From Thermoflexales bacterium (GTDB lineage Bacteria > Chloroflexota > Anaerolineae > J036 > Brachytrichaceae), in the NCBI GenBank assembly GCA_034431495.1, contig DAOUDB010000064.1:1-56903 (forward strand): a DNA stretch of 56,903 nt, in the 5' to 3' direction. Position 1 is the stretch's first letter, and every line of letters begins with the position of its first letter. Of the stretch, positions 6,511-52,198 are shown piece after piece. The notes under the pieces were generated by a model. The model did not search any database and had not been told where the DNA came from. It worked only from the letters and a program-made list of their open reading frames with translations. The translations under genes were made by a program, and so were the position numbers.

Positions 6511-6522
6511 TTCCTGTGTGTC

Positions 6523-10153: not shown

Positions 10154-10174
10154 GTCCATGCGTCATTGGGCCAT

Positions 10175-11993: not shown

Positions 11994-12031
11994 GAGAGCA
12001 ATCGACAAGAGATGCAAGTAGAGGAGACACA

Positions 12032-30847: not shown

Positions 30848-33800
30848 ATGAGAATAGGCATAGCTAGTTCTGTCAGGAATCGGCTGCGTGTGGTCGTGGC
30901 AGCGACACTTCTCATGCCTTTCCTTGTGTCACTGTCTGCCATGCCTGTTGTGGCAAGACAGGTTGATGCGCCCCAACGCGTTGATCCTGCGCCGGTTGCG
31001 CCCGATCTGGGCGATGCGCCGGACAGCACCAACCATCACAACATCCCCAACTGGGCCTATCCGGGCATTCCGGGGCGCTTCCCTACCGTGTGGGCGATTA
31101 CGCCCACTATGCCCCTGACAGCCCCGGCCAGTGGCCCCATCCACTTCAACAAGGATGTCTTCTGGCTGGGCGACATGGTGACTGGCGAAGAGGAGGCAGA
31201 CATTGGGCCGGACCAGGATGGCATCAACAACATCCTCAGGAATGGGGTCATCGCCGACCCACTGCTGGCTGACAACGATCGTGGCGATGATGGCTGGCTC
31301 AACCGCAACAGCGCCGGCGACCTCAGCAGCGCTGTTCTGCCGGACTGCCGTCAGACTACTCTGCGCGTTCGTGTGTCGCGCAGCCCGACGGCCCCACTCA
31401 CATTGAACCGGCTCTACCTCAACGTGTGGTTCGATGGCAACCGCGACGGTGACTGGGAAGACCAGGAGCCGTGCGGCCAGCTTACCGTGCAACGGCACGA
31501 ATGGATTGTGCACAACTTTGTGGTGATTCCGCCAACGACCACGACCTCGTTCGTTATCAGCGCTCCGACGGCGCTCGTGATGAACAAATTCCCGGAGCGC
31601 CCGGCCTGGATGCGCTTCACACTGAGCGAGCAGCCGGCTGTTGCCCCGCCCCCCCACGCGCCCGGCAACCCCGGCGGCCTGCCCGACGGTCGGGGCCCCT
31701 CTTATCCACAGGGCTTTCTGCTCGGCGAGACCGAGGACTATCTTGTCCCTGGCCTTCCCATAACTGGCACGCCCGGCACGATTGTCATCACCAAGTCGGC
31801 CGTCCTTTCGCCGTCAATTCCCGCAAACATTGGCAACCACATTCTCTATCGTGTGGATGTGGGGCATGTTGGCGGACAGGCCGGCGCTCTGGCATACACC
31901 GTCATGAGCGATGTGCTGCCCGCCGAAGTCAGACTCGTCGCCGGGCCGTTTGTCGAAGAGATCCAGCCGGAAGTGACCCCTCTCGTGGCTTACTTCGATC
32001 CGGGTGTCGGCCCGAGTGGCATGGTGGGCTGGCGCGGCGCGCTGACGGCGGGCGCCAAGGTCCGCATCTCGTTCCTGGCGCAGATTCGCCAGTGCCCGGC
32101 GCCCAGCAGTACTCTGTCAATCCGCAATGTGGCGCGCGCGCTGGACACGAACGGGCAGATCGTTCAGGCGGCAACCGAGACACCATTCAACTGTCAGCCG
32201 CCGGCCCGGCCGCCTATCACCCTGACCAAACACATTCTCATCGACCCGCCGCCGTTTATCACCCTGCCCCATGCGCTGACCGGCACGTTGTGGCCGACCA
32301 CGACGCCGGCAGTGCCAGGCCAGACGGCGCTGTTCGTTCTGGCACTGACAAGCGGTGATGCCGTGACGCGCGAAGTGCGCGTGATGGACGATATGCCGCC
32401 CGGCATGCTGGCTGTGGCTGCCGCCGCGACCAGTGGCGAAGCCCGCGTAGTCGATGCCGGCCGCGCCGTGTCATGGCGCGGCGATCTTGGCCCGGCAACT
32501 GCCCCGTTGTTCATTCGTATTCTGGTGCGCCTGGCGCAGAACGCGCCGTGTCAGAACACGTTCATCAATGTCGCCTACTGGCACACCGGCTACTACACCG
32601 GCACGAGCAACCCTGCCACGCTGACGCTGACGTGCAATGACCTGGGCGATGCGCCGGATAGCACCAACCATTTCGGCCTACCGATGCCGGCCTATCCCGC
32701 CCCGTCGGCGTCTGCTTTCATCACGGCCAACTACCCGACGGTATTCCACAGTGGCATTGCCGGCGACCCGCCCGGCCCCAGTCATCAGATGCCCAGGTTG
32801 TTGCATCTTGGCACGGCAGTCAGCCTCGAAGAGGAAGCCGATATCGGTTTTGACGCCGACGGTGTGAACAACATTCGCCCACCGGCACGCGCGGCCAATC
32901 TCGACAAGCACGATGATGGCATCCGTCCGGCCACGCTTGTCTTCAGCAATTGCCAGCCGGCACGTATCCCGGTGCTGCTGAGCATCGATCCGGCGGTGAT
33001 GGCGGTACTGACCACCACAGCCAGCCGGGTTGCCTTTGTCAATGTCTGGCTGGATGGGAATCGGGATGGCGACTGGGCTGATGCCTTCCAGTGCCCGGTC
33101 TCGCCCGATGTCAATCCTGTGCCGGCCCGCGAGCACATCGTTGTCGATTTTCCGGTTAATCTGGCTACGCTCGGCCCCGGCTTGCACACTGTGATTGTGC
33201 CGACCAGCGGGCCGGTACCATGGCCGACCGACATGGTGACCCGGCCGGCCTGGTTGCGCGTCACGCTCAGCGAGCGCCCGTCGAACAAGACGCTGCCCGC
33301 CGGTTGCGCCGGCTCGAGCTGCGCGTATGGCGATGGCCGGGGCTATCCCATCCCCTTCCGCTTGGGTGAAACAGAAGATTACCTGATTCGCTTCGCGCCG
33401 CCCGGCCAGGGCGAGGCCGATGCGGCGGTGAACAAACATGGCATCGTGCTGCCGCGAACGAACGCAGCCGGTGACGTGATCTGGAACCTGGACTGGCGCG
33501 TGGAGTATCGCAATCTGGGCGGTTCGACTGCCGAGAATGTCGTCATCGTCGATGCCTATGAGGGTGATCTGCGCAACGTGGATGTGCGAACGGTCCCGCA
33601 ACTGAGCAGCACCGCAAGCGCGGGTGTGATCACCTTCACCGTCGGCGCGCTCGAGCCGGGCCAGGCCGGCTTCATCGGCCTCAAAACCCGCGCCCCGATC
33701 ACCACACCGCCCGGCACAGTTTTCACCAACACCGTCAGGATCTACAGCAGCAATGATGTGACCGATGCCAACAACACCGACGTGGTGACGCTGACTATCC

Positions 33801-35077
33801 CGCTGCTGCCGCCGGTCATCGTCTGGCCCATCCCCGGCACAAGCTGCACCGGCACGCTCACCGTCGCGGGTCGCGCGCAGCCGGGCGCCGAAGTCGATGT
33901 GTACATCGACAACGCGCTGGCCGGCACGGTCTTTTCCAGCGACGATGGCAACTGGTCTTATGAGGCAACGTTGGACGACGGCAGCCACGAGATCTACGCC
34001 GTCGCGCGCTTTGGCGAATTGTCCAGCGAGCGGTCGCCGATCGTGCGCATCATCGTCGATAGCGAACTGACCTGGAGCCCGATCACGCTGCGCTTTGTGG
34101 ACGATCATGGGCGTATCCTCATCCCACGCGACCGCGAGGGCCGGCTGGATGAGTCGGGTTGGATCGTGCGCTTGCAGCCCACTCGAACCTACACCGTGAG
34201 CGTGCATGTGTGCTGTGCCGATCCGAACGCGACTGTGACGCTGAACGTCCCCGGTCTGGGCGAGGTAACGTTGACAGACGCCGATGGCGATCAGACATAT
34301 GAGGCGACGTTCACCACCGGCCCGGCGGTCACGCTGGCCGGCCAGAACCTCACGCTGTGCGTGACGTGCAATCTGATCCGCCGCTGCTCGGATGGCCGGG
34401 TGATGATCGACCCGCTGGGTGTGGTGTACAACCTGTTGCAGGGTGCGGCAGCGCCATTGCAGAACGCCACGGTCATGTGTTACGTGGCTCAGCCGGCGCA
34501 GGCCGGCGGCAGCGCGAACACCTACAGCCAGTGGCCGGCCGATCTGTATAGTCAGGTCAATCCGCAGACGACCGGCGCGGACGGGCGCTTCAGCTTCTTC
34601 ACGCCACCCGGAACGTACCAGCTTCAGGTCAGCAAGCCCGGCTTCCAGCCATATCGTAGTTGGGACATTGTCGTGTCGAGTGAGCCTGTGACGCGCGATG
34701 TGCCCATGACACCCATCGTGGCTCAGACGCCGAACTACACTGTAACCATCGGGCCGGAGGGATTCGAGCCGACCGTGCTTGTCGTACGGCCCGGCGCGGT
34801 GATTGCCTGGCTGAACACGGACACGACGCCCAGAACGTCCACCAGCCTGATCCCGACGGCGGGTGAGGCGTCGGCGGCGGACGCGCTGGTACCTCAAACT
34901 GTGTCTGCCAGTAGCGCAGATGCCTGGGATAGCGGCCTGCTCGACATGGGCGACTACTATGTGCGGCAACTCGTCGCCGAGGGCGTGTACACCTACTACG
35001 ACGCTGAGAACCCGGCCAACCAGGCCACGGTGATCGTCCAGATGGCAAAGGTGTATATCCCGATCGCCATGCGCTGA
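30848..35077 (+). CDS. Secreted multi-domain surface protein (1410 aa): signal peptide, two GEVED-like modules, DUF11-like repeats, Ig-like / carboxypeptidase-regulatory-like domains and a cupredoxin-like C-terminus
   Basis: AGGAGA RBS and ATG at 30848 (MRIGIASS...LSAMPVVARQ signal peptide). LGDAPDSTNH...DGxNN...WxDGNRDGDW...GETEDYL occurs twice. GADGRFSFFTPPGTYQLQVSKPGFQPY resembles a CarboxypepD_reg domain. The C-terminal beta-sandwich (VVRPGAVIAWLNTD...GVYTYYD) lacks Cu ligands. Confidence 0.85.
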   Translation: MRIGIASSVRNRLRVVVAATLLMPFLVSLSAMPVVARQVDAPQRVDPAPVAPDLGDAPDSTNHHNIPNWAYPGIPGRFPTVWAITPTMPLTAPASGPIHFNKDVFWLGDMVTGEEEADIGPDQDGINNILRNGVIADPLLADNDRGDDGWLNRNSAGDLSSAVLPDCRQTTLRVRVSRSPTAPLTLNRLYLNVWFDGNRDGDWEDQEPCGQLTVQRHEWIVHNFVVIPPTTTTSFVISAPTALVMNKFPERPAWMRFTLSEQPAVAPPPHAPGNPGGLPDGRGPSYPQGFLLGETEDYLVPGLPITGTPGTIVITKSAVLSPSIPANIGNHILYRVDVGHVGGQAGALAYTVMSDVLPAEVRLVAGPFVEEIQPEVTPLVAYFDPGVGPSGMVGWRGALTAGAKVRISFLAQIRQCPAPSSTLSIRNVARALDTNGQIVQAATETPFNCQPPARPPITLTKHILIDPPPFITLPHALTGTLWPTTTPAVPGQTALFVLALTSGDAVTREVRVMDDMPPGMLAVAAAATSGEARVVDAGRAVSWRGDLGPATAPLFIRILVRLAQNAPCQNTFINVAYWHTGYYTGTSNPATLTLTCNDLGDAPDSTNHFGLPMPAYPAPSASAFITANYPTVFHSGIAGDPPGPSHQMPRLLHLGTAVSLEEEADIGFDADGVNNIRPPARAANLDKHDDGIRPATLVFSNCQPARIPVLLSIDPAVMAVLTTTASRVAFVNVWLDGNRDGDWADAFQCPVSPDVNPVPAREHIVVDFPVNLATLGPGLHTVIVPTSGPVPWPTDMVTRPAWLRVTLSERPSNKTLPAGCAGSSCAYGDGRGYPIPFRLGETEDYLIRFAPPGQGEADAAVNKHGIVLPRTNAAGDVIWNLDWRVEYRNLGGSTAENVVIVDAYEGDLRNVDVRTVPQLSSTASAGVITFTVGALEPGQAGFIGLKTRAPITTPPGTVFTNTVRIYSSNDVTDANNTDVVTLTIPLLPPVIVWPIPGTSCTGTLTVAGRAQPGAEVDVYIDNALAGTVFSSDDGNWSYEATLDDGSHEIYAVARFGELSSERSPIVRIIVDSELTWSPITLRFVDDHGRILIPRDREGRLDESGWIVRLQPTRTYTVSVHVCCADPNATVTLNVPGLGEVTLTDADGDQTYEATFTTGPAVTLAGQNLTLCVTCNLIRRCSDGRVMIDPLGVVYNLLQGAAAPLQNATVMCYVAQPAQAGGSANTYSQWPADLYSQVNPQTTGADGRFSFFTPPGTYQLQVSKPGFQPYRSWDIVVSSEPVTRDVPMTPIVAQTPNYTVTIGPEGFEPTVLVVRPGAVIAWLNTDTTPRTSTSLIPTAGEASAADALVPQTVSASSADAWDSGLLDMGDYYVRQLVAEGVYTYYDAENPANQATVIVQMAKVYIPIAMR

Positions 35078-35127: not shown

Positions 35128-35165
35128 AAGGCTGACTTCCTGAAAAGGGAGTCAGCCTTCCTTTG
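35128..35165 (+). terminator. 13-bp stem hairpin (aaggctgacttcc tgaaaa gggagtcagcctt) followed by CCTTTG
   Basis: Lies 50 nt past the stop of the 1410-aa gene. One G-U pair. Weak T-tract. Confidence 0.45.
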
Positions 35166-35282
35166 CTACAATCCCGCCATTGTGCGCCACGCCCATCGGC
35201 CATCCCGGCTGTGCGAGCCTGGTCCGTGCCGACCCTGTCTGTGTTATCAGTCTACGCTGCGCGGCGCGCGACTGGCGGTTTC

Positions 35283-36272
35283 ATGAAAGCATCGATCATT
35301 CGGACTGTGTCCGCTTGGACTGCGCCCGCTCGGACTACGCCTGCCCCCGTGGCCGGCCAGAAAGCCGGGCCTGCCTATGCCCGCTGGCAAGTCATTCTGG
35401 CGTTTGCGGCGTTGTACATCATCTGGGGGTCCACCTACCTGGGCATCCGCTTCGCCATCGAAACGATGCCCCCGTTTGCCATGGCGAGTTCGCGCTTCCT
35501 GCTATCGGGCGCAATGCTGGTGGCGTGGGCGCGCTTTCGCGGGGCGCCCTGGCCCACGCGCCGGCAATGGGCGCATGCAGCCATGATCGGCGCGTGCCTG
35601 CTTTTCCTCGGCAACGGTGGGGTGGTGTGGGCCGAACAACGACATGTCCCCTCCAGCCTGGTGGCGCTGCTGGTGGCGACCACGCCGGCCTGGGTGGCCG
35701 TCATCGACTGGCTGCGGCCCGGCGGCAGCAAACCCAATCGCGGCGTGATGGCCGGCGTGGCACTGGGCTTTGTCGGCGTTGTGTTGCTCATTGGCCCGGC
35801 CAGACTCCCCGACGGCAGCGCGGTCGAGTTGTTTGGTATGGCGCTGGTGGTGGCAGCCTCGCTGGCATGGGCCGGCGGGTCGGTCTTCTCGCGGCATGCC
35901 GATCATCCCCAGTCGCCGCTGATGGACACCGGCATTCAGGCGCTGGCCGGCAGCAGCATGGTATTTGTCGTGTCGGTGCTGAATGGCGATTGGCTGCGCC
36001 TGAATCTTGAAGCCATCTCGTTGCGCTCGGTCGCGGCCTATGTATATCTGGTGATCGCCGGCGGCATCGTCGCCTTCACCGCGTTTGTGTGGCTGGTTAA
36101 GCGGATCGAGCCGTCTCGTGTTGCCACATATGCCTACGTCAACCCGGTGGTGGCGGTGTTTCTGGGCTGGGCGCTAGCCGGAGAGTTGTTGACCATCGAG
36201 ACGCTGATTGCTTCAGCAATCGTGGTGCTGGCTGTGGCGATCATCGTCACATATCGGAGCCGGGGAACGTGA
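35283..36272 (+). CDS. EamA/DMT-superfamily transporter
   Basis: Ten hydrophobic segments and two EamA repeats (ALYIIWGSTYLGIRFAIE...; ...YAYVNPVVAVFLGWALAGE). Start trimmed to the ATG at 35283. Confidence 0.85.
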   Translation: MKASIIRTVSAWTAPARTTPAPVAGQKAGPAYARWQVILAFAALYIIWGSTYLGIRFAIETMPPFAMASSRFLLSGAMLVAWARFRGAPWPTRRQWAHAAMIGACLLFLGNGGVVWAEQRHVPSSLVALLVATTPAWVAVIDWLRPGGSKPNRGVMAGVALGFVGVVLLIGPARLPDGSAVELFGMALVVAASLAWAGGSVFSRHADHPQSPLMDTGIQALAGSSMVFVVSVLNGDWLRLNLEAISLRSVAAYVYLVIAGGIVAFTAFVWLVKRIEPSRVATYAYVNPVVAVFLGWALAGELLTIETLIASAIVVLAVAIIVTYRSRGT

Positions 36273-37408
36273 GCGCACAGGATGAGTTGACCACGATCGT
36301 GAGGCAGACGCAGTTGAGTAGCGTGGATGGGGAGGCCGGCCGGCTTGCTATTCGCGGCTACCCGATCGAAGAACTGGCCGGGCGTGCGACCTATGAGGAA
36401 GCCGCGTATCTGCTCTGGCATGGCGAACTCCCGGACGCGCCGGCGTTGTCTGCGTTCGCAGGCGAGTTGGCATCCCGTCGCGCGTTGCACCCGGCCAGCC
36501 TTGAGCTGCTGAAGGCGTGCGCCGGCGAGCGCGTGACGCCCATGGACGCCATTGGCATGGCTGTGGGCACGCTGGGATTGGGCGTCGCGCAGGATGATGC
36601 GCCGATGACCCTTGTTGCCCGTTTCCCAACGCTGGTCGCGGCGTATTGGCGATTGTTGAACGGCCATGACCCGATCGCCCCGCGCGCCGATCTGGGCCAC
36701 ACTGCCAACTATCTCTACATGCTGGATGGGCAACTACCGAACGCCGGGCGCGTGAAGGCAGTCGAAACGTATCTGGTCACGCTGATCGATCATGGCATCA
36801 GCGCGTCCACGTTTGCCGCGCGGGTCATCATGTCCACGCAATCAGATGTGGTCGCGGCGGTGGCCGGCGCAGTGGGCGCACTGAAGGGGCCGCTGCACGG
36901 CGGCGCGCCGGGGCCTACCCTGCGCATGGTGCTGGAGATTGGCCGGCCCGAGCGCGTCGAATCCAGCTTGCGCGACAGGCTGGCGCGCGGGGAACGGCTG
37001 ATGGGCTTCGGTCATCGTGACTACAAGGTGCGCGATCCGCGCTGCGACGTGCTGGCAGCGGCGGCGCAGGCGGTCTATCAAGCGCAACAGGACATGGCGA
37101 CCTATGCGCTGGCGCGCCGGGTGGAGGAAGTGGCGGTGCGGCTGTTGGCAGCGCACAAGCCGGGGCGTCGCCTGTACGCCAACGTCGAGTTCTACGCCAG
37201 TCTACTGATGCACGGCGCCGGCTTGCCGGCCGAGTTGTTCACGCCCACATTTGCCGTGGCGCGCGCAGCCGGCTGGGTGGCGCATTGCCTCGAACAGCGG
37301 CGCGCCAATCGCATGCTCCAACCGCAAACGGTGTACACAGGGCCGCAGGGCCGGCGTTGGATTCCGCTTGAGTACAGGCCGGCCGCCCGCAGGACGGAAC
37401 TGTCATGA
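36269..37408 (+). CDS. Citrate synthase-family protein (short form; citrate/2-methylcitrate synthase or citryl-CoA lyase-like)
   Basis: LKGPLHGGA, GFGHRDYKVRDPR, NVEFYAS. GTG start overlaps the upstream stop (GTGA). Confidence 0.78.
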   Translation: MSAQDELTTIVRQTQLSSVDGEAGRLAIRGYPIEELAGRATYEEAAYLLWHGELPDAPALSAFAGELASRRALHPASLELLKACAGERVTPMDAIGMAVGTLGLGVAQDDAPMTLVARFPTLVAAYWRLLNGHDPIAPRADLGHTANYLYMLDGQLPNAGRVKAVETYLVTLIDHGISASTFAARVIMSTQSDVVAAVAGAVGALKGPLHGGAPGPTLRMVLEIGRPERVESSLRDRLARGERLMGFGHRDYKVRDPRCDVLAAAAQAVYQAQQDMATYALARRVEEVAVRLLAAHKPGRRLYANVEFYASLLMHGAGLPAELFTPTFAVARAAGWVAHCLEQRRANRMLQPQTVYTGPQGRRWIPLEYRPAARRTELS

Positions 37409-38130
37409 GCGAATTGCTGTATCAGACCGATAGTTATCTTCAGACCTTCGAAGCGACGGTGATGGCCGTGGATGGCGCGGCGCGCAGTGTGACCCTCGAC
37501 CGCACAGCGTTCTATCCCGGCGGTGGCGGTCAGCCATGCGATGTGGGTGTGTTGACCATTGCCGGCGTCGCGTATCCGGTGCTGCGCGCGCAGAAATCCG
37601 GCGATGATGTGGCGCACGTGCTGGGCGGCGATGTGCCCGCACCAGAGGCCGGCGCCCTGGCGCAGGGCCAGATCGACTGGACGCGCCGCTATCAACTCAT
37701 GCGGACGCACACTGCGCTGCATATCCTGTGCGGCATCATCTTCCGTGATTTTGGCGCGCATGTGACCGGCGGCAACATGGAGCCGCTGCAGGGCCGCATG
37801 GACTTCGAATTCGAAACGTTGCACAAGGATTTCGTGCAGCAGGTTGAGGCGGCCGTGAACAGGGAGATCGAAGCTGCCCGGCCGGTGCGAGTCGCCATCC
37901 TGCCGCGCGCAGAGGCGTTTCAAATCCCCGACCTGATTCGCACCAAGATCAACTTGCTGCCCGAGGGCATTCAGTTCGTGCGCGTGGTGGAAATTGCCGG
38001 GCTGGATGTGCAGGCCGACGGCGGCACGCACGTGCGCAACACGTCGGAGGTCGGGCGCATTCGCGTGACCGACTATAAGAGCAAGGGAAAGATCAACAAG
38101 CGTCTATACATCCAAATCGAGCCGGCATGA
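37405..38130 (+). CDS. alaX: AlaX-M-type alanyl-tRNA editing protein
   Basis: [18 protein letters not shown] (HxxxH) and GGTHV motifs, with the usual Cys preceding GGTH replaced by Asp here. 241 aa. ATGA overlap with the upstream gene. Confidence 0.8.
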
Positions 38131-38885
38131 CGCAACCACATCCTCATCCGACCCGGCTGGCCGAGCTGTGGGCCGGGGCGAGGGATACCTTCCCGCTCAT
38201 CGTCGGCACGATCCCGTTTGGCGTCATCTTCGGCGCGGTGGCCGTGACCAGCGGCGTCAGCGTGGGCGGGACGATGGCGATGTCGGCGTTTGTGTTCGCC
38301 GGCTCGGCGCAATTCATTGCGGCCGGGTTGGTGGGGGGCGGGGCCGGCGCGCTGGTGATCGTGGTCACCACGTTTGTGGTGAATCTGCGTCATGCCCTGT
38401 ATGCCGCTTCGCTGGCGCCGCATATGAAGCATCTGCCGCAACGTTGGCTGGCGCCGCTGGGCTTCTGGCTGACCGACGAGACCTACGTGGTGGTTGTCTC
38501 GCGTTACAGCCGGGCCGATGGATCGCCGCACAAGCACTGGTATCACCTGGGGTCGGCGCTGTTCATGTATGCCAACTGGCAGCTTTGCACGTGGATTGGT
38601 CTGATTGCCGGCCAGTCGATTCCAAACCCGCGCGCGTGGGGGCTGGATTTTGCGCTGGTGGTGACGTTCATCGGTATGCTGGCGCAGTTCATCCGCAACA
38701 AGCCGGCGCTGGCGGCTGCCGGCGTGGCGGGGGCCACGGCAGTTGCGGCGCATAGCTTGCCAAACCAGATCGGCTTGTTGATCGCGGCGCTGGCCGGCAT
38801 TGTGGCCGGCATGGCTGCCGAGGCGGTGTGGCCGGCAACGGAAGAGGCGCGTCCTGCAAGCGCGGAGGTAGTCATCGATGAGTGA
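38127..38885 (+). CDS. azlC: AzlC-family branched-chain amino-acid exporter subunit
   Basis: [15 protein letters not shown]....[11 protein letters not shown]... and about 6 TM segments. Immediately followed by an azlD-like gene. ATGA overlap with the upstream gene. Confidence 0.82.
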
Positions 38886-39225
38886 GTGGGTGTGGATTGC
38901 CGGCATGGCGCTGGTCACGTTTGTGGTGCGTTACCCGGTGTTGCTGCTGGTGGGCCGCATGCCCCTGCCGCAGCCCGTGTTGCGCGCGTTGAAGTTTGTG
39001 CCGGCGGCGGTGTTGACGGCTATCGTCGTCCCGGCCATCCTGTTCGACAGCGATGGCCGGATCATGATGGATTACACCAATGCGTTTCTGGTGGCCGGCG
39101 TGGTGTCAGCCGGCGTAGCGTGGCGCAGCCGCAACCTGTTGCTGACGATTGTGGCCGGCATGGCGTCGTTGTGGGTGTGGCGCTGGGTGTTAGCAGTGAT
39201 TGCGCCACAGGCGCTGCTATACTGA
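38878..39225 (+). CDS. azlD: AzlD-family small membrane protein
   Basis: 115 aa. [19 protein letters not shown]...[14 protein letters not shown] pattern. 8-nt overlap with azlC. Confidence 0.8.
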
Positions 39226-39262
39226 CGCTGTCACACTCGCCGATTTGATAGAGAACTATCAC

Positions 39263-40420
39263 ATGATCGTCTCCCGCATCTTTCTCGCCAATTGGCGCAA
39301 CTTTCAAAAGGCCGATGTGAATCTGGGCGAGCGGGTGTTTGTGGTCGGTCCCAATGCGTCCGGCAAATCGAATTTCCTCGACGCTTTTCGTTTTCTGCGC
39401 GATGTGGCCCGGCACGGCTTGCAGGAAGCTGTAAGCAGCCGGGGTGGACTGTCAAAAATCCGCTGCCTGGCGGCGCGCCGATATCCCAATGTTGAAATCG
39501 ATGTGACTCTGGCGGAGCCGGACTCGCCGACGCCTTTGTGGAGATATGCGCTTGGAATCCGGCAGGAAGTGCGCGGCCACCGTCATCCTGCTCTGGTGTA
39601 CGAGCGCGTCTGGCGAGGCGAAGAACAGATTGTCGACCGCCCCAATGACGAAGATCGCCGGGATGAACTCCGTTTGACGCAGACATACCTGGAACAGGTA
39701 AACGCGAATGCGCAATTCCGCGAGATCGCCGGCTTTCTGAGATCAACGCTCTATCTGCACCTCATCCCGCAGTTGCTCAGGTATCCCGAAGCGTTTCCGA
39801 ACGCAGGTCTGCCGGACGATCCATTCGGGCGCAGCTTTCTGGAGCGTGTGGCGCGCACACCCGAAAAGACGAGGAGGTCGAGGCTGAGGCGCATTGAACA
39901 GGCGTTGCGGCTGGCGGTGCCTCAACTGAAGCAGCTTGCCGAGGTCAAAGATGAGCGTGGCGTGCCGCATCTCGAAGCACTCTACGAGCACTGGCGTCCG
40001 CACGGCGCAAAACAGCGCGAAGACCAGTTCTCTGACGGCACCCTGAGACTGATCGGACTCCTGTGGTCTCTCCTGGAGAGCGATTCGCTGCTGCTGTTGG
40101 AGGAGCCGGAGCTTTCACTGAACGCGGCGATTGTCCGCAAATTGCCGGCCATCATCTATCGTCTGCAACGCCAGAAGAGACGCCAGGTGATTATCAGCAC
40201 TCACAGCTTTGACCTGTTGTCCGACAGAGGGATCGGCGGCGAAGAGGCATTGCTGCTCACGCCGGGGCCGGATGGCACACGAATAGACGCTGCTTCCAGC
40301 CTGAAGGATGTTCGCCTGCTGCTTGAGGGTGGGAACACAGTCGCCGATGCGATCCTCGAAAGAACTGCGCCGGAGGGAATAGAGAAGTTCGGCCAACTGA
40401 AACTCGGACTTGACGAGTAA
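39263..40420 (+). CDS. ABC/OLD-type (AAA_15/AAA_21-like) ATPase
   Basis: Walker A GPNASGKSN (nt 39347-39370) following the RecF/OLD-like N-terminus MIVSRIFLANWRNF. Signature-like FSDGTLRLIGLL. Walker B LLLLEEPELSLN. H-loop VIISTHS. Start trimmed to the ATG at 39263. Confidence 0.85.
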   Translation: MIVSRIFLANWRNFQKADVNLGERVFVVGPNASGKSNFLDAFRFLRDVARHGLQEAVSSRGGLSKIRCLAARRYPNVEIDVTLAEPDSPTPLWRYALGIRQEVRGHRHPALVYERVWRGEEQIVDRPNDEDRRDELRLTQTYLEQVNANAQFREIAGFLRSTLYLHLIPQLLRYPEAFPNAGLPDDPFGRSFLERVARTPEKTRRSRLRRIEQALRLAVPQLKQLAEVKDERGVPHLEALYEHWRPHGAKQREDQFSDGTLRLIGLLWSLLESDSLLLLEEPELSLNAAIVRKLPAIIYRLQRQKRRQVIISTHSFDLLSDRGIGGEEALLLTPGPDGTRIDAASSLKDVRLLLEGGNTVADAILERTAPEGIEKFGQLKLGLDE

Positions 40421-40426
40421 GCCGTC

Positions 40427-41026
40427 ATGCTCTTCGTCGATATTGCCGTTGAGGACGCTCTCAGTGACGCCGTGTTGCGCGCGACCATTCAACAGACGCG
40501 CAATGATCTCGTGGTGCGGCACAGTTACTCAAGGGGCGGTTTTGGCTATCTCAGGAAAACCATTCGCGGCTTCAACAATGCGGCTAGGGCGGCGCCTTTC
40601 GTCGTATTGGTCGATCTGGATCAAGCGGAGTGCCCGCCTTGTCTGGTTGCCGATTGGCTGCAGTGCTCGAAGCATCCCAACCTGGTTTTTCGCGTCGCAG
40701 TTCGAGAAGTCGAAGCCTGGCTGCTTGCGCATCGAGAAGCGTTCGCCAAATACCTGGGCGTGGCTGCGTCGAAAATTCCCCTGACCCCGGACGTCTTGAG
40801 TGATCCCAAACAATTCCTTGTGAATCTGGCGCGCAGGTGCCGCTCACGGACATTGCGAGAAGCTATTGTCCCTCGCCCCGGCAGCACGGCTGTTGTCGGC
40901 CCGGACTACAACGGGGCGTTGATCGAGTTTGTGGAGCAATCCTGGAACGCGGATGCGGCAGCGGCCAACTCTGCGAGTCTCCGGCGCGCCATTGCTGCGC
41001 TGGCACAGTTTCAATTCCAGGATTGA
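40427..41026 (+). CDS. Small DUF4276-like / Toprim-like partner protein (199 aa)
   Basis: Starts 6 nt after the ATPase stop. Acidic motifs LFVDIAVED, VVLVDLDQ and REVEAWLL resemble the Toprim-like E ... DxD ... E(x)EAWLL pattern I recall for DUF4276/OLD-type partners. The size and the pairing with an AAA ATPase fit that family. Assignment is from memory and needs an HMM check. Confidence 0.6.
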   Translation: MLFVDIAVEDALSDAVLRATIQQTRNDLVVRHSYSRGGFGYLRKTIRGFNNAARAAPFVVLVDLDQAECPPCLVADWLQCSKHPNLVFRVAVREVEAWLLAHREAFAKYLGVAASKIPLTPDVLSDPKQFLVNLARRCRSRTLREAIVPRPGSTAVVGPDYNGALIEFVEQSWNADAAAANSASLRRAIAALAQFQFQD

Positions 41027-41076
41027 CTGCCCATCCGAGGACGCGCCGCCCTCATCGTCATCAGGACTAAACCCGA

Positions 41077-44000
41077 ATGGATACAGCATCTCCCGATTCC
41101 CAAGCCGATGCCCTGAATGCGCTGAACACCTTCGCCATCGATCTGACCGCGCTGGCCCTCGCCGGCAAGCTCCCCACCGCCTATGGGCGCGACCGTGAGG
41201 TGGATGACGTGTTGCGCGCGCTGGCGTCTCCCGGCTCGTTGTGTCCGATGCTGATTGGGGCGCCGCGTAGTGGCAAGACCGCGCTGGCACACCATGTGGC
41301 CAACCGCATCGCGCGCGGCGAATGCCCCGACGCGCTGCGCAACCTGCGCGTGTTCGAGACCACGCCCACGCGCCTGCTCAGCGCCTTTGGCCCGCCCGTC
41401 AATCTCGCCGCGCGGCTGGGCGAATGTCTGCCCCAACTGGCCAAAGCGCCTGTCATCCTGTTCGTGCGCGACTTTCACGTTGCCGTCGGTATGGGCACGC
41501 CGCCCGATGACAATAACCCGGACCTGGTTCAGATTGTGAGTGACCTGATGTATGGCGCGCGCCCCCGTCTGTTGTTCGAGGCGCGGCAGCGCGCGATGGA
41601 GACCGCTTTTGCCGAACGCACCAGCCTGAAGAGCCTGTTCTCACTCGTTCACGTCGACGCGCTGCCACGCGACCCAGCGATGGATGTGGCGCGCCGGGCG
41701 CGGGATGATCTGGAGATCATCCACGAGATCAATGTGGCCGACGACGCCCTTGAAGAGGCGCTTGACCTGGCGGTGCGCTTTCAGGTCAATGAGGCGCTGC
41801 CCGGCCCCATCCTCGATCTGCTCAAGGATACCCTGGCCACGTTCGATGCTGCTGCTGGCACAGCAGTGACCCGCGCTGAAGTGCGCCGGCGCTTCATTCA
41901 GCGCAGCGGCCTGCCTGAGTTTCTGGTCAGCGACGACGCCCCTTACGACGAACCCGAAGCGCGCGCCTTTCTGACCCGGCGCGTGTTCGGGCAGGAGGCG
42001 GCGGTCGAAGCGGTGCTGCGCATGATCGCGCTGGCGCGCGCGCGCTTGAACAACCCGCTGCGCCCGATGGGCGTCTTTCTCTTTCTTGGTCCGACCGGCG
42101 TCGGCAAGACCGAACTGGTGAAGGCGCTGGCGCAATATCTGTTCAGCGGGGCCGAGCGCATCGTCCGCTTCAATATGGGCGATTACGCTGAAGACTGGAC
42201 CATGCGCACGCTCTTCGGAGACCCGTGGGGCGACACAGAGTCGGAGCGCCAGGGTCGTCTGTGGATGCAACTGACCGGTCAGACGTTCGCCGTGTTGCTG
42301 CTCGACGAGTTCGAGAAAGCCAGCCCGCTGGTCAATCAGCGTTTCCTCCAGTTGTTCGACGAGGGCATTCTGATCAACGGCCAGGGCGAAGAGCTGAATT
42401 TGCGCAACATGATCATCGTGCTCACGTCCAACCTCGGCGCGCGACTGGTGGGCGCCGGCCTTGGCTTCAAGCTGGTTGATCCACTCGAGGATGCCGAGCG
42501 GGCAGTGATGCGCGCCAGCGAGTCGTATTTCCAGCCGGAGTTCATCAACCGACTGGACGCGGTGTGCTTCTTCAAGCCGCTCTCGCGCCACGTGACGCGC
42601 CAGATTGCGCAGCGCGAGATCAGCGAGGTGATCGCCCGCGACGGCATTCAGCGCCGCCGACTGCGCGTGAGCGTGGATGACAGCGCCATCGATCTCATGG
42701 TGGAGCGCGGCTATGACCTGCAATTTGGCGCGCGCTATCTCAAGCGGCAGATCGAGCGCAGCATCACGTATCCGCTGGCGCGCCAGATTGCCCGCAAGCG
42801 CATCGAGCCGGGCGCGACCGTCCGGCTGTTTGCCCGCAACGGCGAGATCGTCGTCGGCTTGTTGGATGAGCGCCCCGACGAGGCCGGCGAGGCTGACCTG
42901 CCGGCAACCCTTCCGGCCGGCCCTGTTGCCCTGGCAAGTGCGAAAGAGTTGAAAGCGCGCCTCGATGTGTTGAGCGCGCGCCTCGACCGGCTGATCGAGC
43001 AGCACGGTATTGCCGAACTGAAGGAGCGCGTGGCGCGCATGATGGATCGCATTGGCGAGCCGGAGTTCTGGCAGGACGCCGACGCAGCCGCCGCGCAGAT
43101 CGAAGAGATGAACGCCGCGTCGCAGCGCGTGGATCAGGTGGAGCACGCGCGTCAGTTGCGCGATCAATGCGCCGAAGCGCTGACCCGCGTCGAGGTGATC
43201 CCCGCCGGCGCCCGCCGGCGCGCGGCAGAACGCGCCGAAGCGTTGACCGAGGCGGATCAATGCTGCCGTGACCTGGCGCGCGAACTTCCGCTGGCAGAGT
43301 TGGTGTTCTGTTTGCGCGAGCCGGAAGACCGGGGCGCGGCATTTGTGGTAGTGCAGGCGGTGGTCGATGAGGCCGGCCAGTTCAGCGCGCCGGCCTGCGA
43401 GTGGGCGCGCGACCTGGCTCGCATGTATATGGCCTGGGCCGAGTCGCGCGGCTTTGAAGTGACGGTATTGCACGAGCATACGGTGGATGGCGGTGAAGGC
43501 GGCGCGCGCGCCGTTGGCATTCGCGAGGCACTGCTATATATCGATGGGTTTGGGGCATACGCCTTGTTGAAAGGCGAGACCGGCTCGCACCGGCTGACGA
43601 TGGCTGCGCCGGGGAAGCGCACCGGCGCGCGGCTGACAGTGTGGGCGCGCGTAGAGGTGCTGCCGGCCGGCGTGACTGCCATTCGCAACCCGGCACGCGA
43701 GGTGAAGGTAGAGACACGGCCCATGCGCGAGCCGGCCTCTCTGGTCGAGCGCCTGACCCGCAGCGCGACCGTTACGCCACTCAAGCAGTTGACCGGCCGT
43801 GTCATCGTATGGCGCAACAATCTGGCGCCAGAGGCGATCGAGCCGCTGGCCGCGCGCTATGTGGTGGCGCTGGCGGCGCGCGGGCCGGCACAGATGGCAT
43901 CTGCTGAACCACCCGACGCCGATGGGCTGATGCCGCTCCGCGATCAGGTCAGGACGTATAGCGTGTTCAAGCAGCATCTGGTCAAGGATTTGCGCACTCA

Positions 44001-44136
44001 CTTCAGCAGCACCCAGCCCGGCAAGGTTCTGGCCGGCGCGCTGGACGATTTTCTGCTGGCCTATCTGGAGTTCGAATCGGGTCGGATACCGCGCGTTTCA
44101 GAAGCATCGAACGCCGAGGACACTGACAAACGCTGA
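41077..44136 (+). CDS. Fusion protein: ClpB-like double AAA+ ATPase (aa 1-600) + RF2-like class-I release-factor module lacking GGQ and SPF (aa 620-1000)
   Basis: NBD1: GRDREVDDVLRAL...MLIGAPRSGKTALAHHVANRIARGECPDAL with an atypical Walker B, VILFVRDFH. NBD2: VFGQEAAV, FLFLGPTGVGKTEL, LLLDEFEKA, IVLTSNLG, PEFINRLD, GARYLKRQIE. C-terminus: EPEFWQDADAAAAQIEE, WARDLARMYMAWAESRGFEV, GETGSHRL, VRTYSVFKQHLVKDLRT and LAGALDDFLLAYL, colinear with E. coli RF2 as I recall it. Confidence 0.85.
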   Translation: MDTASPDSQADALNALNTFAIDLTALALAGKLPTAYGRDREVDDVLRALASPGSLCPMLIGAPRSGKTALAHHVANRIARGECPDALRNLRVFETTPTRLLSAFGPPVNLAARLGECLPQLAKAPVILFVRDFHVAVGMGTPPDDNNPDLVQIVSDLMYGARPRLLFEARQRAMETAFAERTSLKSLFSLVHVDALPRDPAMDVARRARDDLEIIHEINVADDALEEALDLAVRFQVNEALPGPILDLLKDTLATFDAAAGTAVTRAEVRRRFIQRSGLPEFLVSDDAPYDEPEARAFLTRRVFGQEAAVEAVLRMIALARARLNNPLRPMGVFLFLGPTGVGKTELVKALAQYLFSGAERIVRFNMGDYAEDWTMRTLFGDPWGDTESERQGRLWMQLTGQTFAVLLLDEFEKASPLVNQRFLQLFDEGILINGQGEELNLRNMIIVLTSNLGARLVGAGLGFKLVDPLEDAERAVMRASESYFQPEFINRLDAVCFFKPLSRHVTRQIAQREISEVIARDGIQRRRLRVSVDDSAIDLMVERGYDLQFGARYLKRQIERSITYPLARQIARKRIEPGATVRLFARNGEIVVGLLDERPDEAGEADLPATLPAGPVALASAKELKARLDVLSARLDRLIEQHGIAELKERVARMMDRIGEPEFWQDADAAAAQIEEMNAASQRVDQVEHARQLRDQCAEALTRVEVIPAGARRRAAERAEALTEADQCCRDLARELPLAELVFCLREPEDRGAAFVVVQAVVDEAGQFSAPACEWARDLARMYMAWAESRGFEVTVLHEHTVDGGEGGARAVGIREALLYIDGFGAYALLKGETGSHRLTMAAPGKRTGARLTVWARVEVLPAGVTAIRNPAREVKVETRPMREPASLVERLTRSATVTPLKQLTGRVIVWRNNLAPEAIEPLAARYVVALAARGPAQMASAEPPDADGLMPLRDQVRTYSVFKQHLVKDLRTHFSSTQPGKVLAGALDDFLLAYLEFESGRIPRVSEASNAEDTDKR

Positions 44137-44279
44137 CTGTTTTGGCGTTCGGGTTTATTGACGCCGGTCCGGGGTACCTTGAGCAGGTAAGCGAGTGATC
44201 CGCGCGCAGCCGTGTCATCTCACCTTGCTGGCTATCGACGACTGACGGCTGCTGCGCAACCCGGCATTACAATCGCGGC

Positions 44280-45140
44280 ATGTTCCACGGCGCGCCCATC
44301 GTCCTGTCATTTGTCCAGGTCGGGCCGGCGCTGGCTGCTCGCCGACACGAGCGATCCAGGGTGGCTCTGTCACTCGACCTCGGCCTCAGCATGCAGGAAG
44401 CAGAGATCGATGATGGCGGCCTCATCTTGCCCGGCGGCGCGCATCTGTCGTGGGTCTGTCTCGAAGAGATTGCTGCTGCCGAATCCAGTTGCTTTGCCGT
44501 CGAGGCCGATGGAAGCATTCGCAAGATTCAGGCGTTCTCCGCGTTGACTCAGCGTCACTACAGCCTGTACCCAACGACCGGCGCGCCCACCATGCTGGTG
44601 TCGGGCCTGCCGATGCACCGCATCAAGGGCACCGATCCGCAGCGCGACACACTCAGCAAGATCAAGGCTGTCTCATTGACACGGGGCCGCGCGCTGGACA
44701 CCTGCACCGGCCTGGGCTACACCGCCATCGAGGCGGCCAAAGCAGCCGGCGAAGTGGTGACCATCGAACTGGACCCGGCCGCGCAGGAGATCGCCCGTCA
44801 GAATCCGTGGTCGCGGCGGTTGTTCGAGGCTCCCAATATCCGGCAGATCATTGGCGACAGCGCCGAGGTGATCGCACAGTTTGAAGAGGCGTCCTTCGCG
44901 CGCGTGATTCACGACCCGCCCACTTTTGCGCTGGCCGGCGACCTGTATTCAACCGATTTCTACCGGGAGATGTGGCGCGTGCTTCAGCCGGGGGGGCGCG
45001 TCTTTCACTACATCGGCGATCTTGACAGCAAATCGGGCAGCCGTGTGGCGCGCGGGGTGGTGGAACGCCTGCAACAAGCCGGGTTCGCGCGCGTCATTCC
45101 TCGCAACGAGGCGTTTGGTGTGGTGGCGGTCAAAGCGTAG
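44280..45140 (+). CDS. Class I SAM-dependent methyltransferase with a DPPxF motif (COG2521-like)
   Basis: Motif [16 protein letters not shown], motif [10 protein letters not shown], then [25 protein letters not shown]. An internal ATG at 44391 is an alternative start. Confidence 0.75.
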
Positions 45141-45169
45141 CGCCCTGTGAATCGCAAACGCTGGTTGCG

Positions 45170-45910
45170 TCATCCTGTGGCTTGTTGTATCGGGAGGCCG
45201 AGACCCGCCGCTGGCATCTCATTCCATATCCGGCCCCGCAATTCCCGCCCCGCCTTCTTCTTGTTCACGCCTCCCCATTGCTTGAAGAAAAACGGCACGC
45301 CGGCGCGCCGGCACTGGTCTCGAATAGTCAGCACCCAGGATTCCTGAACAGGTCGCGCGCCGGGGCCGGATTCACCGCCGACAATCACCCAATCGATGCC
45401 TTGCAAGTCAAGGCCAGGCAACGGTCCAAGCAGCGGTTCCAGAGACAGAAACTTGATCGCGGCGCCGGTCTTGCGCAGGCAATCGATGCGGGAAATGTAG
45501 CGTTGATTCTCGACACTGACACCCATCCAGATGTTGCCGGGCCAGGTCACGCTGGCGCTCAATTCAGCCAGGCGCTCGGCGCGCTTGGTCAACACCTGGA
45601 ACCTGTGCCAATGCGCGCGGCGCATTACGTCGAAGACGCGCTGAATGAATTCGAGCGGAACATCCTTGTGAAACAGGTCGCTCATCGAATTGACGAAGAT
45701 CGTTTGCGGCTTGCGCCAACGCAGGGGTAATTCGAGCGCGTGTTCATGCAGTGTCAATCTGAAACCATTTGTGTAGTGAGGGTGTCCCATGGCCTGCAAC
45801 CGGCGCGCCATGCGCTCAGCATAGCAATGCTGGCATCCAGGGCTGATCTTCGAGCAACCGGTAAGCGGGTTCCAGGTGGATTCAGTCCATTCAATGCTGG
45901 AAGTCGCCAT
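45170..45910 (-). CDS. DUF5131 / phage Gp37-Gp68-family three-Cys protein
   Basis: N-terminus [35 protein letters not shown] (IEWT..TWNP..GC-x6-C-x2-CYA), 246 aa. Paired with a TcmP-like gene upstream. Confidence 0.82.
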
Positions 45911-50773: not shown

Positions 50774-52135
50774 TTAGCCAGTTCGAGACGATCCCGTGTC
50801 CCTGGCCAGTCGGTCTATATATGCCCGAATCGACGGCACGGCCAGCAGCCGGTCGCGGAAGAAGTCGTTGGCGATGTCGATCAGTTCGCTGCGCGCCAAT
50901 TCAGCCAGATCCACAAAAGCTTGGCCGGTCTGTCGCAGCGACAATGCTTTGCGGAGTTGTAGCAGGCGGCCGGCGATCACTTTCTCCTCTTCGCCTTCCA
51001 ACGCATCGATCACAGTGAAGATGAGTTGATCGGCCTGTGCGATCAGGTTTTCGAGCGCCATATCTTGCCCAAGATGCAAAGCCTCATCCAGTGAGCGTAT
51101 CAGCGCCCAGCCCTGATAGAGCGCGGCTGCCGGCTCGTCGAACAGCTCGCGCACATAGGCCGCCTCGACATACTGTCCGTTCAGGCGGAAGATGTTGTAC
51201 AGCCGTTTGGCGACCTTGCCATAGTTCACGTCTTCGGCCAGATACTTGCGCACTTCCTTTTCAAGCTGACCGATGTAGTGATCCACGGCATCTGCCGCAA
51301 CCTGTTTAGCCAGTTTGGCAAAGATGGGTATCGACTCCGCCTCCAGATAGACTTCCTGGAAGTATGGGTCCAGATAGCCATCCAGCGGCGTGATGGCGCC
51401 GTCAGGGGCCTCCCACGTCACGTCGAACATGTTGCTGGCGTTAGCCAGCCGGCCGTGCTGCGGCTCGGCGATGATCCAGTCCATCTTGCACCAGCCGGGG
51501 TCCTGGGCCACCTCGTCCCATGTGATAGTTGCCTGTGCGCCATCGGGGCGGGTGACTTGGACACGCCCGGCCTGCACTTCTTCCGCCGTCCAGCCGATGG
51601 AACTGCCGGCCTTCATCTTGCGCCCGTTGCGCATCACCTCGTAGGGGAAATTGCCGAAGCGTACCTGGATCAACTGATATGTCGGGCCTTTGAGTGTGCT
51701 GAGGGCTTTCTCGCGCAGCACGCGCGCCAGGATGCGACAGGCTTCCTCGCGCGAGGGCGCGCGGATGTTGACCCGCTCGAAGTAGTCGGCATCGCCGGGG
51801 TAGGTTTGCACTTTAGATTGCGCCGCCGACCCGGACAGCGAAAGCGCCGTCTCAACGACGCCCGGCTCGTCGTAGATCTCCACCAGCCGGCCCACCTCGC
51901 GGAAGTGCGCCAGCTCGGCCGGGCTGAAGTCGAGCATGGTGATCTTGTGGCCGAAGACGCCCGAGCGCATGTCATATTCCACCGCGTCGGCGCTGTGCCC
52001 GACGGCCATCGCCGCCAGCCATTGCAGCGCCTCCTCCTCGTCGATCTCGACGCCCATCCGTCGGGCCGATTCGATGATCTGCGCCAGTTCCTGCTGGGGC
52101 GTTGATTGTTGTTCGGTCTGCGTTTGCTCGGTCAT
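50774..52135 (-). CDS. Hypothetical protein with a predicted pol-beta-type nucleotidyltransferase core
   Basis: LSLSGSAAQSKVQTYPGDADYF (nt 51779-51841) fits hG[GS]-x9-13-Dh[DE]h. A later strand, CKMDWIIAE, could supply the third carboxylate. Long helical C-terminus. Start trimmed to the ATG at 52135 (GAGGAG 6 nt upstream). Confidence 0.7.
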   Translation of the reverse strand: MTEQTQTEQQSTPQQELAQIIESARRMGVEIDEEEALQWLAAMAVGHSADAVEYDMRSGVFGHKITMLDFSPAELAHFREVGRLVEIYDEPGVVETALSLSGSAAQSKVQTYPGDADYFERVNIRAPSREEACRILARVLREKALSTLKGPTYQLIQVRFGNFPYEVMRNGRKMKAGSSIGWTAEEVQAGRVQVTRPDGAQATITWDEVAQDPGWCKMDWIIAEPQHGRLANASNMFDVTWEAPDGAITPLDGYLDPYFQEVYLEAESIPIFAKLAKQVAADAVDHYIGQLEKEVRKYLAEDVNYGKVAKRLYNIFRLNGQYVEAAYVRELFDEPAAALYQGWALIRSLDEALHLGQDMALENLIAQADQLIFTVIDALEGEEEKVIAGRLLQLRKALSLRQTGQAFVDLAELARSELIDIANDFFRDRLLAVPSIRAYIDRLARDTGSSRTG

Positions 52136-52198
52136 CTGAGACTCCTCGTGATCTGAAACCACATCCCTTGAACGCGCCGGCCGGCTGCGCGAATCCCA

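Follow-up and report, generated by a model that had tools for sequence, protein, structure and literature searches.

A single gene in the 56,903-nucleotide (nt) stretch of Thermoflexales bacterium DNA analysed here (contig DAOUDB010000064.1, hereafter the window) encodes a Clp/Hsp100 double AAA+ motor fused to a full-length, four-domain paralogue of peptide release factor 2 (RF2). The gene is an open reading frame (ORF) of 1019 amino acids (aa) with an ATG start, defined from the ORF list and its translation (Table 1). An earlier note, made from the DNA letters alone, had described it as a ClpB-like unfoldase joined to an RF2-like module, and the union of the two parts in one ORF was borne out by Pfam, NCBIfam, phmmer searches against PDB sequences and AlphaFold/Foldseek comparisons. 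The protein belongs to a family that is widespread, vertically inherited, uncharacterised and already present in public databases. Judged by its sequence features, the motor is ClpA/ClpC-like rather than ClpB-like, and the release-factor part is a constrained structural domain carrying a new conserved loop. We tentatively propose that the protein may be a stand-alone, ClpP-coupled unfoldase using a dead RF2 as a codon-independent ribosome-targeting module.

Architecture of the fusion protein

Pfam profiles identified an AAA_2 domain (aa 329-495, E = 7.5e-36), a ClpB_D2-small domain (aa 502-583, E = 3.9e-15) and a PCRF domain (aa 648-849, E = 7.5e-21, 75-78 bits against a cut-off of 24), together with an AAA_lid_9 match in the first nucleotide-binding domain (NBD1) that lies slightly under its 22.8-bit cut-off (21.8 bits, E = 1.8e-4). 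No Pfam match to RF-1 (PF00472) was obtained in the fusion protein even at E ≤ 1, and none to Clp_N, the alignments beginning at residue 160 of ClpA and residue 147 of ClpB. In NCBIfam, aa 9-583 are colinear with ClpA residues 160-745 and aa 632-864 match prfB (E = 9e-37). In searches against PDB sequences, aa 1-600 match ClpB over two separate blocks (ClpB 147-405 and 552-837), and the C-terminal 419 aa align end-to-end with RF2 (E = 1.2e-21, query 23-398 to chain 4-362). The two blocks are separated by about 25 residues, so that the ClpB segment 405-552, which contains the M-domain, is without a counterpart. The arrangement of class-I Clp/Hsp100 proteins, with tandem AAA+ modules and then a D2-small domain, was thus found by Pfam, NCBIfam and structure comparison.

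AlphaFold (AF2) models based on family alignments were confident, both for the RF part (pLDDT 89.8, pTM 0.85) and for the full-length protein (pLDDT 90.3). Foldseek matched the C-terminal model to RF2 (E = 1.7e-21), with the compact, free or pre-accommodated forms of RF2 being closest (TM 0.60-0.73), and the full-length model to ClpC, ClpC1, ClpB and ClpA at about 1e-40, ClpC-ClpP and ClpC1-P1P2 complexes being among the top matches. A tether of about 25 aa joins the motor to the RF module. The protein is nevertheless no member of any of the three parent families by profile score: it is not a ClpB, as it lacks the M-domain and reaches 331.5 bits with TIGR03346 against an equivalog cut-off of 1232.1; not a strict ClpA/ClpC, as it lacks Clp_N, has a degenerate first ring and reaches 297 bits with the ClpA model against an equivalog cut-off of 993; and not an RF2, as it has neither GGQ nor SPF and reaches 127-131 bits with TIGR00020 (prfB) against a cut-off of 370.

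All motif comparisons quoted in the earlier note were reproduced in the HMMER alignments. These include the similarity of the NBD1 P-loop region to ClpB, the NBD1 Walker B VILFVRDFH in place of VILFIDELH, and the colinearity of the C-terminal part with full-length RF2; the lack of Clp_N and of a ClpB-length M-domain was likewise confirmed. The profile searches and the structural model that had been suggested as checks also agreed with the proposal, PCRF scoring above its cut-off with RF-1 unmatched, AAA_2 and ClpB_D2-small both matching the motor part, and the confident model leading to RF2.

To define what the release-factor part has kept, 24 family members were aligned with 40 canonical RF2 sequences, in which 59 columns are at least 90% invariant. 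The family retains 1/1 of these columns in domain 1, 16/31 in domain 2, 4/17 in domain 3 and 7/10 in domain 4. The retained positions form the RF2 scaffold, comprising FW, W..LxxMY, G..L..E.G.HRL, the Pro that ends a β-strand, VR.Y (preceded by WG in many members), D.R and G....F. In domain 2 this scaffold comprises W776, Y784, G824 and E834-x-G836-x-H838-R839, and in domain 4, R959, Y961 and G987 are invariant, with D971, R973 and T974 at least 90% conserved.

The residues that read stop codons are lost, namely the glycines and Asp of the α5 tip, R842, the SPF motif and T854/S855/F856 of RHTSF: S844, P845 and F846 survive in 2/24, 6/24 and 0/24 members, and T854, S855 and F856 in 5/24, 2/24 and 0/24. 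Lost as well are the residues acting in the peptidyl-transferase centre (G-x-G-G-Q, the following Asn, RITH and the R/Q/N of ERSQxxN), including all of the canonical domain 3 residues G884, G886, Q888, N891, R898, R916, Q918 and N921. In the phmmer alignment to PDB chains, RF2 SPFDSSGRRHTSF is replaced by APGKRTGARLTVW in the fusion, and SGAGGQHVNTT by REPASLVERLT. None of 104 members carries GGQ at the catalytic loop, where this gene reads EPASLVE, and the alignment thus revealed no intact GGQ that the earlier reading could have overlooked. The second Gly of GGQ (G887) survives in 102/104 members and is Ala in this gene. 'GGQ' strings occur in seven members and were rejected as catalytic motifs, since they map elsewhere (aa ~847, 905, 695 and 588). 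The loop is instead occupied by a family motif, G-Φ-Φ-Φ-x-[RK]-L-[TR] (Φ, hydrophobic), which is basic in some clades, e.g. GRRLRRLR. With GGQ, SPF and the codon-reading residues gone, and no PF00472 match, the RF module can neither canonically read stop codons nor catalyse peptide release, as had been claimed from the sequence.

The two AAA+ rings differ in their motifs. NBD1 retains its Walker A motif (G61, G66, K67), and its Walker B reads R131-D132 in place of D-E in this gene and RD, DE and DA in 49, 23 and 13 of the 104 members. Its sensor-1 is replaced by an invariant Glu (E168), and no conserved Arg was found across the family at the ClpB trans-arginine (ERRF) position. These substitutions suggest that the NBD1 ring may bind nucleotide and mostly not hydrolyse it. 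In NBD2, the Walker A (GPTGVGKT, aa 338-345), Walker B (D410-E411), sensor-1 (N452), Arg finger (R492) and sensor-2 (R553) do not vary among the 104 sequences, in line with the earlier description of them as intact. Catalytic motifs are therefore conserved in one ring and not in both. A pseudo-ATPase D1 is compatible with function, because ClpA is driven mainly by its D2 ring, with D1 in an auxiliary role (PMC7568338).

The aromatic-hydrophobic pore-1 loops of Clp ATPases (KYR in D1, GYVG in D2) were found in neither ring. No Tyr is conserved across the family in the NBD1 pore loop. The NBD2 loop has an Asp at the canonical Tyr position, where the aromatic residue is lost as first described, but Trp384 lies two residues upstream, a position occupied by Tyr, His, Asp and Trp in 28, 25, 20 and 13 of the 104 members.

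The class of the motor is indicated by a ten-residue loop between sensor-1 and the PEFxNR Arg-finger motif, which carries the tripeptide L462-G463-F464. In the AF2 model the loop is exposed and flexible (pLDDT ~60) between helices 453-459 and 470-484. Across 104 sequences the first position is L in 41, I in 37, W in 20 and M in 4, the second is G in 103 and the third is F in 102. The Φ-G-F tripeptide was found in 119/120 members, and also in the distant TPR, Pirellulales and other fusions described below. After the ClpC1 and ClpA segments had been checked against PDB chains, MAFFT aligned the family tripeptide column by column with ClpC1 LGF and ClpA IGL, and both ClpB sequences were without it. 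At the sequence level, the protein thus possesses the [LIV]-G-[FL] tripeptide of ClpA/ClpC, and LGF/IGF loops are the established ClpP-docking element of Clp ATPases, entering hydrophobic pockets of ClpP (PMC4416901).

The Φ-G-F loop and the missing M-domain together point to a ClpA/ClpC-like motor and predict a proteolytic output, in place of the ClpB-like motor of the earlier note; the M-domain defines ClpB/Hsp104 and couples them to DnaK. Proteolysis, beyond remodelling alone, is the likely output on this basis, and coupling to ClpP, taken as a claim of its own, seems slightly more probable than its absence. No clpP was found in the window or in the flanks examined.

Distribution, selection and gene neighbourhood

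A full-length search recovered about 120 clusters among the matches listed, all of 950-1050 aa, with the same Pfam set and with identities from 89% to 34%. The named clusters come from Anaerolineae, Thermoflexales, Roseiflexaceae, Herpetosiphonaceae and Chloroflexia. In addition, genomes of 185,579 species, one genome per species, were scanned with the signature [FY]GARYL[KA]RQ, which was derived from alignment A3, including GARYLKRQIE (alignment A2, restricted to the RF part, offered no sufficiently conserved stretch). The fusion is encoded at 46 loci, 45 of them under Chloroflexota lineage titles and one named only as an uncultured bacterium. Cultured carriers are Herpetosiphon aurantiacus (DSM 785, with the locus near 5.09 Mb of CP000875), H. 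geysericola, H. giganteus and H. llansteffanensis. The fusion is thus no one-off and belongs to a broad family, whose members carry the automatic database labels 'AAA family ATPase' or 'PCRF domain-containing protein'.

Sequence change in the RF module is rapid, and comparisons between family members give scores no higher than comparisons with canonical RF2. When only the RF part served as query, a large protein index returned only four canonical RFs, its word pre-filter having missed this fast-evolving module, and an exact protein look-up found no record. An exhaustive phmmer search with the RF part recovered the family as well as more distant fusions. Three of these (P0138, P0176, P0206 [L054/L055]; 1341-1404 aa) carry an N-terminal TPR domain of about 400 aa, and one member of the TPR-type cluster comes from Gemmatimonadota (MAE72102.1). 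A plain AAA-AAA-D2small-RF fusion occurs in Pirellulales of Planctomycetota (MGE0606001.1). P0205 (L052) and P0211 (L056) are also listed among the distant AAA-AAA-D2small-RF variants, the latter, of 952 aa, being a further degenerate variant without Φ-G-F and the canonical NBD2 motifs. These variants all lie among unrelated housekeeping genes.

Selection on the gene was estimated as the ratio of non-synonymous to synonymous substitution rates (dN/dS), comparing the window gene with the orthologue of 89% identity. The ratio is 0.165 overall, 0.055 for NBD2, 0.15 for NBD1 and 0.26 for the RF module. The value of 0.26 indicates that purifying selection maintains the RF part, though less tightly than the motor.

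Literature searches yielded no description of a PCRF-Clp/Hsp100 fusion, in agreement with the earlier statement that no characterised system has this architecture; subscription journals were mostly outside their scope, so one may exist. The most comprehensive survey on how release factors evolved (Burroughs & Aravind 2019) does not mention a Clp fusion (PMC6514570). The family is thus widespread, one half of what had been named as a refutation of the proposal; the other half, a known characterisation, did not come to light.

The flanking ORFs of 52 loci (51 fetched and the window) were clustered all-vs-all. No neighbour is universally linked to the fusion among these loci, and no ClpP, ribosomal or defence gene is linked; a conserved operon partner was accordingly rejected, the clustering showing clade-specific housekeeping synteny only. 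In the Anaerolineae clade uvrA lies upstream of the fusion (15 loci), in the Herpetosiphon clade the order is pyrR-[fusion]-pyrB (10-11 loci), and in the Thermoflexales clade the neighbours are helicases. The window itself is ordinary chromosome, with genes for ATP synthase beta, citrate synthase, a sensor kinase, a ThiF-like protein and others, and the GC content of the fusion gene (64-67%) equals that of its flanks, as expected from the native composition noted at the outset. This context fits a vertically inherited, monocistronic core gene.

A possible function and its alternatives

In the mechanism that we tentatively favour, the protein would assemble into a ClpA/ClpC-like hexamer whose Φ-G-F loops would dock on a ClpP encoded elsewhere in the genome, with degradation, not refolding, as the output; to our knowledge, all Clp/Hsp100 proteins assemble as hexamers. 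The six tethered dead-RF2 modules would be built-in adaptors for the ribosomal A site or factor-binding site, binding ribosomes independently of the codon and without releasing the peptide, and would localise the unfoldase/protease on stalled, vacant or otherwise aberrant ribosomes. There, the NBD2 motor would extract and degrade a ribosome-associated polypeptide, with nascent chains, bound factors and ribosomal proteins as possible targets. A docking role is supported by the retention of all four RF2 domains, domain 1 among them, and of the domain 2/4 scaffold (E.G.HR, R.Y and D.RT), and by the likeness of the model to compact or pre-accommodated RF2. The absence of an operon partner and the housekeeping neighbours support a lone enzyme with a generic partner. 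Taken alone, the claim that the protein binds the ribosome is close to evenly balanced and tips slightly towards the negative.

Several points weigh against this mechanism. The RF module sits at the ClpP-proximal end of the motor and substrates enter at the distal end, so that the tether must reach around the motor. Of the 17 RF2-invariant residues in domain 3, 13 are gone, the peptidyl-transferase-centre contacts among them; canonical 'open' accommodation may therefore no longer occur, which somewhat weakens the case for A-site docking. The pore loops of both rings are non-canonical, with only a semi-conserved aromatic near the NBD2 Tyr position, which makes processive threading uncertain. 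The per-domain net charge shows no informative difference from canonical RF2. Finally, plant PrfB3, an RF2 paralogue without SPF and GGQ, has been recruited to a non-ribosomal RNA-binding role, on petB mRNA (PMC5897788).

This precedent leads to the strongest alternative, in which the RF2-like module was co-opted to bind a specific ligand other than the ribosome (an RNA, a tRNA or a protein) and the AAA+ motor, together with ClpP, remodels or degrades a dedicated client. Such exaptation would accord with the loss of every residue that gives RF2 its ribosomal function, with the conserved, in some clades basic, motif in place of the GGQ loop and with the rapid evolution of the module. However, the entire four-domain RF2 architecture is kept across phyla, including domain 1, which in RF2 serves, as far as we know, only contacts with the ribosome and RF3, and no linked gene offers itself as a candidate partner, and we regard this explanation as unlikely, if worth serious attention.

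A protease-independent remodeller of the ClpB type, docking on ribosomes through the dead RF2 and splitting them, extracting factors or inactivating them without ClpP, appears improbable. NBD2 does score best against ClpB models (331 bits versus 297 for ClpA), ClpB provides the top PDB sequence matches, and non-canonical pore loops would suit a remodeller better than a processive translocase. Yet the M-domain is absent, and a remodeller would leave unexplained the near-invariant Φ-G-F loop at the ClpP-docking position.

The neighbourhood pattern described above speaks against a role in defence, which the earlier note had raised because the gene directly follows a defence-type pair. That pair is real: PADLOC identified HEC-01A (8.6e-156) and HEC-01B (2.9e-66), an ATPase/Toprim-like pair, which ends 50 nt upstream of the fusion in the same orientation, and the pair likewise precedes the fusion in L010, a contig of Thermoflexales bacterium H28_387. 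The linkage, however, is not conserved, as it is confined to the window and L010 and is absent in the locus of the 89%-identical orthologue (L001), where the same flanking synteny is kept, and in about 50 other loci from more than 40 genomes. An AlaXM/AzlC/AzlD/HEC-01 block is inserted between citrate synthase and the fusion in the window; it is wholly absent in L001 and present in part in L010 (AzlCD and HEC-01AB, without AlaXM). Moreover, the HEC-01 genes have a lower GC content (58-61% versus 64-67% in the flanks), PADLOC gives only generic AAA matches in the fusion protein itself, and the clade-wise uvrA or pyr operon synteny indicates vertical inheritance of a core gene. That the protein is an anti-phage or abortive-infection effector acting with HEC-01A/B is hence very improbable.

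An artefact, i.e. a frameshift or misassembly uniting a clp gene with a decaying prfB pseudogene, is scarcely credible, for although the gene is broken at about aa 755 in one relative (L010/P0007), more than 100 independent clusters and 46 genomes, some of them complete and from isolates, show the architecture uninterrupted, the RF part has a dN/dS of 0.26 and a confident AF2 model, and such family conservation excludes the assembly error that had been named as a way in which the proposal could fail.

Among known systems, the fusion would work most like a ClpA/ClpC-type ClpP partner with an inactivated release factor as its substrate-selection domain. With ClpA/ClpC (ClpC1) it shares the colinear two AAA+ modules and D2-small domain and the hydrophobic-Gly-Phe/Leu tripeptide, on an NBD2 helix-loop-helix at the same alignment position, and with ClpA also the lack of a ClpB-type M-domain. 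It differs from them in having no Clp_N adaptor-binding domain, in an NBD1 devoid of the Walker B Glu, Arg fingers and pore Tyr, in the replacement of the NBD2 GYVG loop and in the additional C-terminal RF2 paralogue of 400 aa. ClpB/Hsp104 is alike in the NBD1 P-loop neighbourhood and has the highest NBD2 sequence similarity (201-205 bits per domain), but it possesses the M-domain (405-552) and N-domain that the fusion lacks, and only the fusion has Φ-G-F. With RF2 (PrfB), the fusion shares the four-domain fold, colinear over about 360 residues, a PCRF match above the Pfam threshold and the scaffold motifs FW, W..MY, E.G.HR, R.Y and D.RT; unlike RF2, it has no GGQ, SPF, α5-tip GG..D, RHTSF or ERSQxxN and is joined to an AAA+ motor.

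A release-factor fold without the catalytic Gln or codon-reading motif and with a role outside termination is also found in PrfB3, Dom34/Pelota and the mitochondrial mS35-type bRF-PH (PMC5897788, PMC6514570). In none of them is there a covalent link to an AAA+ unfoldase; Dom34 has a different and unrelated fold, aeRF1, and the likeness to PrfB3 is one of features. Vms1-Cdc48 brings together a release-factor-like protein and a double-ring AAA+ unfoldase (PMC6514570), but the two associate non-covalently through a VIM motif, Vms1 is a catalytically active protein of the aeRF1 fold, and Cdc48 stands outside the Clp/Hsp100 group. The closest functional analogies may be seen in Vms1-Cdc48 and in Dom34, an inactive eRF1 paralogue, although they are non-homologous.

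Should the proposed mechanism of a ClpP-coupled, ribosome-targeted unfoldase hold, the A site would be sensed without codon reading, and nascent chains, stuck factors or ribosomal proteins would be degraded on the ribosome, as in a covalent bacterial counterpart of Vms1-Cdc48 or Dom34-type rescue. Stalled ribosomes in bacteria are rescued by tmRNA, ArfA/RF2, ArfB, RqcH/RqcP and PrfH/RtcB. We know of none among these routes that uses an AAA+ unfoldase recruited by a release-factor fold. It is conceivable, if rather doubtful, that Chloroflexota and some Gemmatimonadota/Planctomycetota possess an unrecognised pathway of ribosome-associated quality control (RQC) or turnover, in which a ClpP-coupled unfoldase is hard-wired to a dead RF2. 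What becomes testable is whether some bacteria link sensing of the A site with ATP-dependent extraction and proteolysis, paralleling eukaryotic RQC. Were exaptation of the RF module for another ligand the right reading, the family would be a clear bacterial case of a translation-factor fold serving as a protease adaptor. The family furthermore offers a natural Clp unfoldase in which the D1 ring is a pseudo-ATPase and the pore loops are non-canonical, and is as such informative for AAA+ mechanism. Since it occurs in cultured Herpetosiphon species, experiments are feasible.

Features of the gene and its surroundings

Table 1 Coordinates of the fusion gene, its parts and its immediate neighbours in the window
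Feature	Position (nt)	Strand	Residues (aa)	Basis and remarks
Whole gene	41077..44136	+	1-1019	AAA+/AAA+/D2-small/tether/RF2-like fusion; self-match P0005 and >100 full-length homologues
NBD1, degenerate	41182..41946	+	~36-290	Alignment to ClpB 147-405; family column counts
NBD2 large domain	41959..42576	+	~295-500	AAA_2 7.5e-36; alignment to ClpB 552-837
NBD2 pore loop, non-canonical	42214..42240	+	380-388	FGDPWGDTE versus ClpB IGAPPGYVG
Φ-G-F loop, putative ClpP-docking	42454..42483	+	460-469	GAGLGFKLVD with L462-G463-F464
D2-small domain	42580..42861	+	502-595	Sensor-2 G551-A552-R553 in family signature GARYLKRQIE; invariant columns
Tether, acidic/Pro-rich, disordered	42862..42939	+	596-621	AF2 pLDDT 37-54, without secondary structure; dN/dS 0.30
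RF2-like domain 1, helical bundle	42940..43311	+	622-745	Invariant F664-W665; PCRF match, RF2 alignment, AF2 helices
RF2-like domain 2	43312..43671	+	746-865	RF2 alignment; 16/31 RF2-invariant columns retained
SPF-equivalent segment	43600-43644	+	842-856	Within domain 2
RF2-like domain 3	43672..43926	+	866-950	No Pfam RF-1 match; GGQ loop replaced
GGQ-equivalent loop	43726-43758	+	884-894	REPASLVERLT
RF2-like domain 4	43927..44076	+	951-1000	VRTY...KDLRT...G...F core retained
HEC-01A/B candidate defence pair	39200-41026 (with 37405-39225)	same as fusion		PADLOC; grouped with AlaXM, AzlC/AzlD
Class-I SAM methyltransferase	44280-45140			Directly downstream of fusion; generic matches (Methyltransf_25, weak MTS/RsmD-like)

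In L001 the gene order is citrate synthase, a small ORF, the fusion, the methyltransferase, DUF5131 and an MVD-like gene. The methyltransferase was considered as a PrmC-like partner and rejected, its matches being generic and far under the cut-offs, and its co-occurrence with the fusion, which had been suggested for tabulation, is kept only in this nearest relative. No sigma-70-like promoter was found in 39000-45300. A weak terminator-like hairpin (44129-44149) overlaps the stop codon of the fusion, hits of this kind in the region being no more numerous than in shuffled sequences.

The orthologue in L010 lies at 4507-6894 and has about 87% nucleotide identity, the contig being collinear with window positions 38086-43340. 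It breaks at about aa 755, giving a 795-aa ORF (P0007), which is followed by unrelated genes for a protein tyrosine phosphatase (PTP)-like phosphatase and a response regulator. The break may reflect natural truncation, rearrangement or chimerism in a contig of a metagenome-assembled genome (MAG).

Elsewhere in the window, four long ORFs have no Pfam match at E ≤ 1e-5, namely 414-3413 (-, 999 aa), 10163-12328 (-, 721 aa), 23471-25279 (+, 602 aa) and 50774-52162 (-, 462 aa); some of them may be spurious, given the high-GC DNA. Compared with L001, where the order is ATP synthase, MreB, Maf, M50 peptidase and citrate synthase, the window has an insertion that encodes a 1440-aa protein with GEVED, DUF11 and CarboxypepD_reg domains (30755-35077) and an EamA transporter (35163-36272). 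A DUF5131 protein, phage Gp37/Gp68-like (2.5e-106), is encoded at 45170-45910 (-) and at the same position in L001, and its gene may be a prophage remnant or a domesticated gene.

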